Source: Candidatus Zhuqueibacterota bacterium | Lineage (GTDB): Bacteria > Zhuqueibacterota > Zhuqueibacteria > Residuimicrobiales > Residuimicrobiaceae | Direction of reading: 5' to 3' | DNA length: 58,799 bases | Assembly: GCA_016934435.1 (NCBI GenBank) | Contig: JAFGSU010000516.1 | Coordinates: 1-58,799 of the forward strand | Notes under the pieces: model-generated | Seen by the model: only the letters and a program-made list of their open reading frames with translations | Database searches by the model: none | What the model was told of the DNA's origin: nothing | Translations under genes and position numbers: made by a program | In this document: positions 9,988 through 25,209 of the stretch, one piece after another | Layout: each line of letters opens with the position of its first letter | Numbering within the stretch: position 1 is the first letter of the stretch

Positions 9988-10016
9988 TTGATACAGATCC
10001 GCAGTAGCTTTATACA
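9988..10016 (+). promoter_or_regulatory. Candidate sigma70-type promoter (TTGATA-17-TATACA)
   Basis: TTGATA at 9988-9993, a 17-nt spacer, then TATACA at 10011-10016. The predicted start at about 10022-10025 coincides with the first bases of repeat copy A. Confidence 0.4.
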
Positions 10017-10020
10017 TAGC

Positions 10021-10102
10021 AGATTCGGTGTTAACTGGCAAATTGAAGGGATGAGGCGCCACCCACAGGAGTACCGAAATAATTTGTAGACACCGAATCG
10101 GT
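10021..10102 (+). repeat. Conserved intergenic element, full copy A (candidate 5'-leader RNA or operator)
   Basis: Aligns without gaps over 82 nt to 20904-20985 and 25096-25177. The 5' GATTCGGTG is complementary to the 3' CACCGAATC. The copy ends in the perfect palindrome ACCGAATCGGT (10092-10102), 25 nt before the ATG at 10127. Confidence 0.8.
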
Positions 10103-10126
10103 ATCCATTTGAACCAGGGAGCAAAA

Positions 10127-15391: not shown

Positions 15392-15442
15392 CAACACCGA
15401 TTCGCCGCCCACAGGTTACAACGTTTACCTTATGGGTGGCAC
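15392..15442 (-). repeat. Diverged 3'-half copy (E) of the intergenic element, inverted orientation, containing a hairpin
   Basis: The reverse complement reads GTGCCACCCATAAGG...CCTGTGGGCGG-CGAATCGGTG. It has the same 38-nt spacing between the GYGCCACCCA block and CGAATCGGT as copy A. GCCGCCCACAGG (15404-15415) pairs with CCTTATGGGTGGC (15428-15440). Confidence 0.55.
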
Positions 15443-15526
15443 ATTATCCGTTCAGTTCAGGTTGAGGCAAAATTTAGGGACAAATTAACCAAGCTTTAAA
15501 ATGTTAAAAAATATTAATCTTTCCAC

Positions 15527-20382: not shown

Positions 20383-20838
20383 GTGATTCAGATGGTCCGT
20401 AATATCCAGATTCATGTCCAATGCCCGAATTCCCGTCTGCCGGTGGGAGATATGGAACTTTTAGCAGACCTGATTTTAAAAAAATACCATAGCAGAAAAG
20501 GATGGCAGGTCTCCATTATCCTCGTCAATGATGAGCAAATGATCAGGCTCAATAGAACTTATTTTAATAAAATAATGCCCACCGATGTGATCTCTTTTAA
20601 TATGGATGATAATGACCATCCGTCGTTCCTGCAAGGTGAAATTTATATAGATATAGATCAGGCTTCTTTACAAGCACGACGATATGGGGCGTCTTTGCAA
20701 AATGAAATCTTACGCCTGACCGCGCATGGCATCTTTCATCTGTTGGGATATACCGACGAAACTGAAGAAAGCAGTTTGATGATGACAAAACTTGAAGATG
20801 AAATCTTAACCGAATTTGAGCAGTTTGGTCGGAATTAA
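20383..20838 (+). CDS. ybeY: rRNA maturation endoribonuclease YbeY
   Basis: 151 aa. The metal motif HGIFHLLGYTDE aligns with HGxLHLxGYDH. The position after phoH/HD is the usual synteny. The start is uncertain: GTG at 20383 or ATG at 20392. Confidence 0.88.
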   Translation: MIQMVRNIQIHVQCPNSRLPVGDMELLADLILKKYHSRKGWQVSIILVNDEQMIRLNRTYFNKIMPTDVISFNMDDNDHPSFLQGEIYIDIDQASLQARRYGASLQNEILRLTAHGIFHLLGYTDETEESSLMMTKLEDEILTEFEQFGRN

Positions 20839-20845
20839 AAATCCC

Positions 20846-20874
20846 TTGACAATAAGGTAAATTTTTGATAATAT
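20846..20874 (+). promoter_or_regulatory. Near-consensus sigma70-type promoter (TTGACA-17-TAATAT)
   Basis: TTGACA at 20846-20851, a 17-nt spacer, then TAATAT at 20869-20874. The predicted start at about 20881 lies roughly 20 nt upstream of repeat copy B. Confidence 0.6.
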
Positions 20875-20903
20875 TAAAAGAACGTCGCATATTATATTTT
20901 CCC

Positions 20904-20985
20904 AGATTCGGTATTAACTGGTAAATAGAATTGATACAGCGCCACCCACAGGGTTGCCGAAATAACTTGCAGACACCGAATCGGT
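20904..20985 (+). repeat. Conserved intergenic element, full copy B (candidate 5'-leader RNA or operator)
   Basis: AGATTCGGTATTAACTGGTAAAT...GCGCCACCCACAGGG...GCCGAAATAACTTGCAGACACCGAATCGGT. The palindrome at 20975-20985 ends 27 nt before the ATG at 21012. Confidence 0.8.
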
Positions 20986-21011
20986 GATTTTAATTCTGAT
21001 GGAGGCTGACC

Positions 21012-22160
21012 ATGCATGTGCTCCGATTTGATTACCGGGATTTATTTCGCGCTCCCAGATTGGCATTCAGCATGCAACGTATCTGGATACAGTTTTTTGG
21101 CATGAGTATTGGATATGGCGTCTATTTGGTATTAACCTATATTGCTTTCCTGATCAATGGAACTTCTATCACGCAGACGTGGGAGGCGTTCGGTCTTGCA
21201 CCCTGTTTGTTTGCCGCCTGGGGTTCAATTGCCTGGTACGCCTGGTTGGCGTTCGCTTTTGCTATCTTTGCATTATTTTTTGTTTTTTTAATCACCAATA
21301 CTGCCGTTGCCAGAGTGACATACATGGTTTCGAAGGGCAACCACTTTTACAGTTCGCGAGAAGCATTATCGTTTTCGTTGCGAAAAATGGCAGCCGTTCT
21401 CTCGACGCCTTCTTCGCTATTGCTATTGCTGGTGTGCATGGTTGTCGGCAGTATGATATTGGGTCTGATCGGGCGTATTGCCTATTTCGGAGAATTGGTT
21501 GTCGGAATATTTTCAATACTATGGTTCCTGTCGGCTTTACTATTTATTTATATTTTCCTGGTCTTTCTCGCTTCGTTTCTTCTAACACCAAGCATCATCG
21601 CTTGTACGGATGAGGACGCTTTTGAGGCTGTTTTTCAGACTTTTTCCATTACATGGGGGCAACCCTGGCGCCTGATTCTCTATGAGATCATTACTATCAT
21701 ACTTGCTCTATTTTCGATGGGCGTTCTTGCCTTTCTGGGTAAGCGAGCGATTATGTTGACAAATGTACTGCTCTGCCGTTTTATGGGTATGGATTATATC
21801 ATCTTGTCTAATAATGGACAGGCGCTCGTGCAAAACTGGATCATTGCAATCGAAGCCCCCTTACGGGCCATATATCACAACTTTACAGGGCAAATATTTT
21901 TCACCAATGAATTTATCTATACGCCGACAAATAATGTGGCATTAACCATCGCCTCGTTTTTGTTTGCCCTCAGTCTGCTGTGTTTCGGCGCTTGGATTCT
22001 CGCTTACGGTCTATCGACATTTACAGTTGGTAATACCTTGACTTATCTTATTTTGCGGCATAAAAAAGATGGGGAAAATCTGCTGGAGCGAAAAGATAAA
22101 GAAGAAGAAAGCGAAGAGTCTGAGACGAATGAGGTGAGCAGCGAACAGGCGCCCGGATAA
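21012..22160 (+). CDS. Polytopic inner-membrane protein with an acidic C-terminal tail (unknown function)
   Basis: 382 aa. GGAGG lies 6 nt upstream of the ATG. There are about 8 hydrophobic segments, and the C-terminus is KDKEEESEESETNEVSSEQ. Confidence 0.7.
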   Translation: MHVLRFDYRDLFRAPRLAFSMQRIWIQFFGMSIGYGVYLVLTYIAFLINGTSITQTWEAFGLAPCLFAAWGSIAWYAWLAFAFAIFALFFVFLITNTAVARVTYMVSKGNHFYSSREALSFSLRKMAAVLSTPSSLLLLLVCMVVGSMILGLIGRIAYFGELVVGIFSILWFLSALLFIYIFLVFLASFLLTPSIIACTDEDAFEAVFQTFSITWGQPWRLILYEIITIILALFSMGVLAFLGKRAIMLTNVLLCRFMGMDYIILSNNGQALVQNWIIAIEAPLRAIYHNFTGQIFFTNEFIYTPTNNVALTIASFLFALSLLCFGAWILAYGLSTFTVGNTLTYLILRHKKDGENLLERKDKEEESEESETNEVSSEQAPG

Positions 22161-22300: not shown

Positions 22301-23584
22301 ATGTCTGTATTTGTAAAAATTAAAGATAAGCAGTTAGGGCCCTATTCCTACCAGGAGCTCAAGCAGCTGGTGGGACAGGGTGCTTTCAGCAAAGAAGACC
22401 TGATATTCCATGAGGAACGGCAGGAATGGGTAAAAGCGGCCCAGATAGAGGAAATTCGTCAATTATTTCCGGACCAGCACTATTCGGCAACCGGGCGAAC
22501 AGTTTTCGCTGTCGGTGGAGGAAAGGGTGGGGTTGGCAAAACCGTTCTCACCGCTTCAATAGGTATTGGCCTGGCGACATTGGGTTACAAGGTGGTCATT
22601 GTTGACGCCGATTTGGGCGGCGCGAATTTGCACACCTGCATGGGTATTTTGGAGCCGGAGTATACTTTTTACGATTTTTACTCATTACAAAAGGACAACC
22701 TGGTAGACATATTACTTGATACGCCCATAGAAAATTTAAAACTTATCAGTGGGGCTTGCGGCACGCTGGGGTTGGCTAATCCTCGCTACTCACAAAAATT
22801 AAAATTTATCAATCAACTGAGACGGATCAACGCCGATTTTATCTTGCTTGACCTGGGGGCTGGATCATCATTCAACGTCATCGATTTTTTCCTCGCTGCC
22901 GACCAGGGGATCGCCGTTACCTCGCCCGAACCCATGGCCATCCAGGAGACTTTTAACTTTATTAAAATATCGTTGATGCGACGACTCTTGCGAGAGTTTA
23001 AAGATAATCCACAGGTGATTTCAAAATTAGAACAAAACGCCTTCTCAGAATCAGGCCGCATGGCTGCAACCCTGGAATCGGTTATAGAGCAGATACGTAT
23101 CATAGATACCAAGGCTGCTGAGAGTATGCAGCATACCATCGACCGATTCAAACCCTCCCTTATTCTGAATATGGTTCATTCCCAGGAGGAAATTAAAGAG
23201 GGTATGGCACTACGCACAGCAGTCGAGGATCTTTTGTCTTTAAAAATGGATTATATGGGTTATGTTGATTATGATGATTCCGTTCGCAAGGCGGTAAAAG
23301 AACTTCGGCCTTTTGTGATCGATAATCCAAAATCAAAAGCATCGAGGAGTCTGGCAAAATTAATCACCATCGGACTTTTAGGAAAAACAGGCTGGAGCGG
23401 TTTTAAAGAAAAACGGAGAGTACTAAAACACATAACCCAGGATGCAAAAACTTATCCGGCAAATAGCCTTAAAGAAAGCGATACCATTTGCTCGGTGCAA
23501 TGTTTTTACTGGGGCGATTGTGAATACCAAAATGGCGGCTATCCCTGTCCCGTTCGTCATCTGGACCCCATTTTTCGACGTTAA
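22301..23584 (+). CDS. GYF_2-domain / MinD-ParA-FlhG-type P-loop ATPase with a C-terminal Cys motif
   Basis: The N-terminal ~55 aa (GPYSYQELKQLVGQGAFSKEDLIFHEERQEWVKA) are GYF_2-like. The deviant Walker A is GGGKGGVGKT, followed by VIVDADLGG. The C-terminus is CSVQCFYWGDCEYQNGGYPCP. Confidence 0.8.
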   Translation: MSVFVKIKDKQLGPYSYQELKQLVGQGAFSKEDLIFHEERQEWVKAAQIEEIRQLFPDQHYSATGRTVFAVGGGKGGVGKTVLTASIGIGLATLGYKVVIVDADLGGANLHTCMGILEPEYTFYDFYSLQKDNLVDILLDTPIENLKLISGACGTLGLANPRYSQKLKFINQLRRINADFILLDLGAGSSFNVIDFFLAADQGIAVTSPEPMAIQETFNFIKISLMRRLLREFKDNPQVISKLEQNAFSESGRMAATLESVIEQIRIIDTKAAESMQHTIDRFKPSLILNMVHSQEEIKEGMALRTAVEDLLSLKMDYMGYVDYDDSVRKAVKELRPFVIDNPKSKASRSLAKLITIGLLGKTGWSGFKEKRRVLKHITQDAKTYPANSLKESDTICSVQCFYWGDCEYQNGGYPCPVRHLDPIFRR

Positions 23585-25039: not shown

Positions 25040-25095
25040 TATTTATTTTCACGATCTTGTAAGATATTATCCATGAGGTTCGATTGATAAATCTT

Positions 25096-25177
25096 AAATT
25101 CGGTATTAACCGGTAAACAAAAGCGATGAGCCGATACATTCGGGATAGATGAATAATCTGGTAAACACCGAATCGGT
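25096..25177 (+). repeat. Conserved intergenic element, full copy C (variant core), between trkH and trkA
   Basis: AAATTCGGTATTAACCGGTAAAC...CCGATACATTCGG...GAATAATCTGGTAAACACCGAATCGGT. The palindrome at 25167-25177 ends 32 nt before the ATG at 25210. Confidence 0.8.
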
Positions 25178-25209
25178 ATAAATTTTGACTTGAAGAAGAG
25201 AGCGAAAAT

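Follow-up and report, generated by a model that had tools for sequence, protein, structure and literature searches.

Copy B, a repeat of 86 nt at positions 20901-20986 of the window (the whole stretch of DNA that was analysed, 58,799 nt in length), is very probably a MITE, a deletion derivative of an IS1380-family element, that would have been moved in trans and inserted into the leader of a gene for a membrane protein. It is ordinary mobile DNA, a MITE of a known kind, of modest note only for its descent from IS1380 and its copy number. The initial annotation had considered the repeat as an attenuator, a riboswitch or an operator, which finds no support in view of the target site duplications (TSDs) of a mobile repeat, the mixed orientation of its copies, the absence of covariation and of Rfam matches, and the absence of the repeat from the leaders of relatives.

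Probable position of copy B in the leader of a membrane-protein gene

Copy B is located downstream of ybeY and upstream of a gene for a polytopic membrane protein, and the features recognised in this region are as follows:

20383-20838, plus strand: ybeY (endoribonuclease YbeY), the upstream gene; Pfam PF02130, E=4e-31
20846-20874, plus strand: sigma-70-type promoter-like site TTGACA-17-TAATAT, 10/12 consensus positions
20846-20851 and 20869-20874: -35-like TTGACA and -10-like TAATAT, with a 17-nt spacer
20896-20900: left TSD of copy B, ATTTT
20901-20913, plus strand: left terminal inverted repeat of copy B, CCCAGATTCGGTA (family consensus CCCAGATTCGGTG)
20901-20986, plus strand: MITE copy B, 86 nt, of the same subfamily as copy A (nhmmer and clustering; model R1 matches 1-86, 80.3 bits)
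20974-20986, plus strand: right terminal inverted repeat of copy B, CACCGAATCGGTG, itself a near-palindrome
20987-20991: right TSD of copy B, ATTTT, a perfect 5-bp direct repeat with the left one
21001-21005, plus strand: Shine-Dalgarno GGAGG, 6 nt 5' of the ATG at 21012
21012-22160, plus strand: polytopic membrane protein of 382 aa, with no Pfam family

Re-reading of the sequence confirmed the coordinates that had been given to the promoter, the repeat (20903/4-20985), the GGAGG and the ATG at 21012. Based on the composition of the flanks, the boundaries of copy B were placed at 20901-20986, which makes it 2 bases longer at the 5' side and 1 base longer at the 3' side than the unit first delimited. 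The membrane-protein gene is intact and conserved, 13 related genomes having orthologues that are 46-51% identical, and its adjacency to ybeY is kept in nine genomes of the same family. According to Pfam, the product of the next gene (22301-23584) joins an N-terminal GYF_2 domain to a P-loop ATPase of the ParA/MinD type, which is an unusual fusion.

In the 1-kb region, three promoter-like sites were found as compared to 3.0 expected from shuffled sequences, so that a match to the consensus alone is weak proof of a promoter. The site at 20846-20874 gains weight from the enrichment of TTGAC-type sites in the genome and from the recurrence of such a site at the same position in relatives. Among the genes with long upstream spacers in this genome, 55 TTGACn-16/18-TAnnnT sites were located within 150 nt upstream of genes, as compared to about 10 in shuffled sequences; the antisense strand gave 10. 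Start codons are preceded by a GGAG peak at -12 to -9 genome-wide, and the genome employs both Shine-Dalgarno sites and TTGACA-type promoters. A TTGAC/TTGAT...TAnnnT site was identified at the same position in five related genomes, a few bases past the ybeY stop codon. The consensus scan also showed a TG directly 5' of TAATAT (20869-20874), which is an extended -10, and no second promoter-like site was recovered within copy B or in the 25 nt between copy B and the ATG.

The promoter at 20846-20874 thus looks real, and the transcript of the membrane-protein gene is predicted to start near 20881. Copy B begins 22 nt past the -10, and the Shine-Dalgarno sequence and the ATG are both located outside of the element. 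The placement of copy B in the 5' UTR, between promoter and ribosome-binding site, had been part of the initial annotation and is, with a positionally conserved promoter and no other site available, the most likely arrangement on comparative grounds.

A dispersed repeat family with target site duplications

We searched the whole assembly (4.06 Mb, 551 contigs, 70.8% complete) with a profile of the repeat and obtained 301 nhmmer matches, of which 263 were near full length, so that the family accounts for about 0.6% of the assembly. The copies are nearly all intergenic: when genes were called simply from ORFs, 244 of the 301 could be assigned to the space between two genes, 42 were at contig edges and 15 extended by over 30 nt into a gene. 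In the clustering, 47 copies fell into one subfamily and 18 into another, and many older ones remained single.

The window contains four copies rather than three, the additional one being on the minus strand, with three copies in direct orientation. Besides copy B, these are:

10018-10103, plus strand: MITE copy A, with TSD TACAT (10013-10017) and TCCAT (10104-10108)
about 15395-15478, minus strand: fourth MITE copy, diverged, with TSD TTGTC on both sides
25093-25178, plus strand: MITE copy C, between trkH and trkA, with TSD TAAAT (25088-25092 and 25179-25183)

A TSD is hence present at all four copies in the window. Copies A, B and C are in the sense orientation and located 7-33 nt 5' of a start codon.

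The family has imperfect terminal inverted repeats of 13 nt, with CACCGAATCGGTG at the right end, and the consensus termini CCCAGATTCGGTG and CACCGATTCGGTG (the reverse complement of the right end) are identical at 11 of the 13 positions. The four top mutual-information signals among 223 aligned copies were identities between the left and the right flank, not base pairs; positions -7 to -3 equal positions +2 to +6 in 62-73% of the copies, as compared to a background of about 28%. Counted over 175 full-length copies, with offset flanks as controls, a perfect 5-bp TSD was present at 45 copies (0-1 in the controls) and a TSD with at least 4 of 5 matching positions at 96 (4-6 in the controls). Perfect TSDs were found at 27 of the 62 high-scoring, young copies, as compared to only 1 of the 31 low-scoring, old copies, and the TSDs of the family consist of 80% A+T. 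Copy B itself contains no ORF in its 86 nt. A short non-coding unit with inverted ends, a TSD of fixed length and hundreds of dispersed copies identifies the repeat as a MITE.

Across all subfamilies and in copies from a sister genus, the best-conserved part of the interior is a central block, GCCACCCACAGG (element positions 41-54, e.g., 20944-20954). A small ACCC/GGGT hairpin has its stem kept and its loop altered in the sister genus, and the block may be a subterminal site for the transposase or a host factor.

Relationship to IS1380-family insertion sequences

Members of the IS1380 family have TSDs of 4-5 bp and ends that begin with CC (ISfinder). We searched for transposases with the NCBIfam IS1380 model NF033539 at a cut-off of 180 bits, and full-length genes were identified in several genomes of the same order. 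One of them (L065) belongs to G008, a genome from the same taxonomic family, where the transposase scored 187 bits with NF033539 and E=5e-29 with PF13701; the element is about 1.55 kb long, ends in CTCTGATTCGGTGTTAAA on the left and CTCGGATTCTGTGTTAAC on the right (as reverse complement), and is flanked by the perfect TSD TCAAA. Two further IS1380-family records, L067 and L069, encode transposases that are 83% identical to that of L065.

The right end (IRR) of these two records, CCCGGATTCGGTGTTAAC as reverse complement, is identical to the left end of the MITE, CCCAGATTCGGTGTTAAC, at 17 of 18 positions, and the two remain alike over about the next 20 nt towards the interior (TTGA.CTGAAAA...GCC). 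The 5-bp TSD of L069, TATCA, is perfect. The left ends of the nearest autonomous elements resemble the right end of the MITE moderately, at about 9-12 of 13-18 positions. ISEcp1, the best-known member of the IS1380 family, begins on the left with CCTAGATTCTACGT and generates AT-rich 5-bp direct repeats (PMC6061673); the left end of the MITE, CCCAGATTCGGTGT, agrees with this IRL at 8 of the first 9 bases, both begin with CC, and AT-rich 5-bp target duplications are common to the MITE and the family. The elements of the family differ from the MITE in having a length of about 1.55-1.65 kb and a transposase, as compared to 86 nt and no transposase gene. Likewise, ISEcp1 and ISPme1 carry a complete outward promoter (PMC9330008), whereas none of that kind was seen in the MITE by scan or by eye. 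Inspection of both strands by eye and of the flank composition yielded nothing convincing as an outward or hybrid promoter.

No intact IS1380-family transposase was identified in the 71%-complete assembly, which contains one truncated relic only. This IS1380-like relic (G000:C258:10954-11802, minus strand) aligns to positions 23-308 of the 419 in the model and, with 116.6 bits, falls short of the cut-off; no ends could be recognised for it, nor any that match the MITE, and it adjoins a convergent gene. Orphan inverted-repeat matches and partial copies in the assembly were decayed fragments with no autonomous partner among them, and a single scan each of public genome contigs and of metagenome contigs gave close relatives of the G008 element, with no direct parent element recovered. 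Judging from its ends and target duplications, the MITE most plausibly arose by internal deletion from an IS1380-family element, and it would have been mobilised in trans by the DDE transposase of that family.

Record L067 is a 1.8-kb contig from a MAG labelled 'Smithella', and a nearly identical transposase in a MAG of such a different taxonomic label suggests horizontal spread or misbinning. Just past the IS1380 right end, at 1550-1779 of this contig, the sequence resembles, by eye, a further transposase gene of an ISL3-like kind, which would suggest that one insertion sequence had inserted into another.

Empty sites and the age of the insertion

We compared the spacer between ybeY and the membrane-protein gene to the same spacer in related genomes. 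It measures 173 nt here and 33-88 nt in nine genomes of the same family. Five of these relatives share the position of the promoter, and in them the -10 is 29-50 nt away from the ATG, as compared to 137 nt here. The latter number equals 46 + 91, where 91 nt corresponds to the element plus one TSD.

The MITE family is present in three of the 43 genomes of the order, with at least 104 copies in the genome studied here and with 14 and 6 copies in two genomes of one sister genus, the only other genus with the family. A copy from the sister genus has perfect inverted repeats of 16 nt and the TSD ATCCA. The site of copy B is empty in both of these genomes (G004 and G007), and the insertion is therefore specific to the present lineage. 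A contig of 326 nt that comes from another sediment study matches 20725-21050 with 96% identity and has copy B in place, so that the insertion is older than the split from that second strain. No empty allele was found within the species, for which the one other strain contig was occupied. The second strain differs by 7 changes in the 86-nt element and by 6 in 240 nt of flank, and although these numbers are small, copy B does not appear to be under stronger constraint than the DNA around it.

The element would have inserted at the AT-rich pentamer ATTTT, about 15-20 nt past the predicted transcript start, and have duplicated this pentamer, whereby the 5' UTR would have been lengthened from about 40 to about 131 nt. 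The membrane-protein gene would still be transcribed from its old promoter, through copy B. The right end of the element is terminator-like and might cost some read-through, with a stem that is marginal. We judge that the insertion is probably neutral or mildly deleterious or attenuating, and that it is tolerated rather than being a regulatory device. If so, the locus offers a natural experiment in which a conserved gene has kept its old promoter while the length of its leader has tripled.

Structure, orientation and distribution of the copies

RNAalifold predicted no consensus structure, either on 223 copies or on 55. In the terminal stem and the central mini-hairpin, 84% of the cells pair because the ends are conserved, and covariation was absent from both, with 1 compensatory cell as compared to 4.5 +/- 1.8 in shuffles. 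Over the full set of 223 copies, pairs are broken in 647 cells and preserved by double changes in 57, where independent decay would give 112 double changes. Single-sequence folds of both strands had z values of only -1 to -2, and the fold of the whole predicted leader (z = +0.66) was no more stable than that of shuffles. No Rfam family was recovered on the element, at the gathering score or at E-values up to 10.

The copies have no fixed orientation relative to genes. In tandem spacers, 68 copies are in the sense and 91 in the antisense orientation, and within 150 nt upstream of start codons the numbers are 63 and 102, respectively (p=0.003). Their distribution among spacers is also uneven, with 8 copies observed in convergent spacers as compared to 35 expected from the available length, and 77 in divergent spacers as compared to 56 expected. 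The depletion in convergent spacers and the antisense excess near gene starts go beyond simple random insertion and are not explained by it. The simplest account of these biases is a preference of the transposase for AT-rich, promoter-like DNA. About 15 nt outside of the TSD, the flanks display a symmetric composition signal: of 211 copies, 109 have T at -22/-23 and 101 have A at +21/+22. This pattern suggests that the transposase prefers palindromic target sites.

In the three metatranscriptomes of the source study nothing was recovered from this locus; the organism is about 5-7x deep in the DNA run.

Alternative explanations

The possibility that fares best beside plain insertion is that the repeat, a MITE by origin, has been co-opted at this locus or throughout the family as a leader module that tunes the downstream gene by terminating part of the transcription, by being processed by RNase or by stabilising the mRNA. 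This would add to the MITE reading, not replace it, and we regard it as unlikely. It draws on the right end of copy B, where CACCGAATCGGTG is followed by ATTTTAATT in a weak terminator-like pattern with a 5-bp stem and a 3-nt loop, on the capacity of the inverted repeats to close a long-range RNA stem, on the biases among spacers and near gene starts described above, and on the retention of the insertion in the strain of 96% identity from the other sediment sample. The terminator-like pattern consists of the right end of the element and the duplicated ATTTT; its stem, however, has only 5 bp, and the pattern is not a property of the family. At least five T in the next 8 nt were counted for 10 of 54 sense copies and 16 of 66 antisense copies (p=0.47); T-rich tails are thus not avoided after sense copies across the family, with no sign of selection against U-tracts, nor are they rarer there than after antisense copies. 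The pairing is not supported by covariation, the leader folds no better than shuffles, and the element has changed faster than its flanks in the second strain. A wider version, in which the MITE family is partly domesticated and selection, beyond mere target preference, keeps promoter-proximal, oriented copies, is in our estimate improbable; if it were true, transcribed copies such as copy B would be portable leader modules for more than 100 unrelated genes, whose mRNA levels they could set by incomplete termination, by RNase cutting at the long terminal stem or by a transcript end that confers stability.

We consider it highly improbable that the repeat is a riboswitch or an attenuator, that is, a cis-regulatory RNA common to the Exb-like operon, the membrane-protein gene and trkA. 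In favour of such a reading, copies A, B and C are all sense and close to a start codon, and copy B is located between promoter and ribosome-binding site. Copy B does resemble the riboswitches and leader attenuators among the cis-regulatory families of Rfam in this position, in its size of about 85 nt and in a stem that closes its ends. It differs from them in having TSDs and in the absence of covariation, of an orientation rule, of conservation at orthologous loci and of a functional theme among the downstream genes. Since a riboswitch or attenuator must be in the sense orientation, the mixture of orientations counts against a regulatory RNA; genome-wide, the orientation towards the next gene is mostly antisense among the approximately 300 copies with their TSDs, and the fourth copy in the window is itself antisense. 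Nor does the family have a consensus structure or an Rfam match, and it is confined to two genera and absent from orthologous leaders. That the downstream genes share no obvious ligand, as already remarked in the initial annotation, is what random insertion predicts. With the MITE reading, a false riboswitch or attenuator lead is removed, and copies A and C as well as the inverted copy are covered by one mechanism.

The repeats could also be operator sites for a DNA-binding regulator, with the near-palindrome CACCGAATCGGTG marking a large regulon, as might be suggested by the near-perfect palindrome at the right end, the core GATTCGGTG at both ends and the preference of the copies for spacers that contain promoters. 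We find this very unlikely, since a regulon leaves unexplained the fixed 86-nt unit with 5-bp duplications of unrelated flanks, the homology to the ends of insertion sequences and the copies at contig ends, while the ends are accounted for as binding sites of a transposase. A palindromic repeat of the REP/REPIN type, spread by a RAYT (Y1) transposase, would likewise be short, abundant and intergenic with inverted symmetry, but is so improbable that we reject it: REPINs generate no target duplications of a set length, in contrast to the 5-bp TSDs of this family, the interior of the element is not a continuous hairpin, and the Y1 transposase PF01797 is absent from the assembly, while control genomes gave matches.

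Comparison to other prokaryotic MITEs

Leader-located MITEs are well known from other bacteria, the Correia elements among them. We compared the present family to known prokaryotic MITEs (Correia/CREE of Neisseria, ERIC, RUP, Nezha and the Tn3-derived TIMEs), which are likewise short and non-coding with inverted ends and a fixed TSD, occur in hundreds of intergenic copies with several subfamilies of different age, and are frequently located near promoters and in transcribed leaders. Correia elements have TA duplications, as compared to 5-bp TSDs and an IS1380-like source here, and TIMEs have 5-bp duplications too, but Tn3-type GGGG ends. For the Correia elements a promoter, an IHF site and RNase III processing have been described. 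Unlike the hosts of the listed MITEs, its host is an uncultured sediment bacterium.

The occurrence of an IS1380-derived MITE at about 300 copies in such a bacterium also helps to account for the fragmentation of the assembly. Contig ends are occupied by 17 copies, as expected of a repeat that breaks assemblies, and several contigs end exactly in young copies that are nearly identical to each other (e.g., C54:1-86, C190:1-86, C26:8600-8685 and C352:4277-4362), from which we conclude that the MITE is a main cause of the break-up into 551 contigs.
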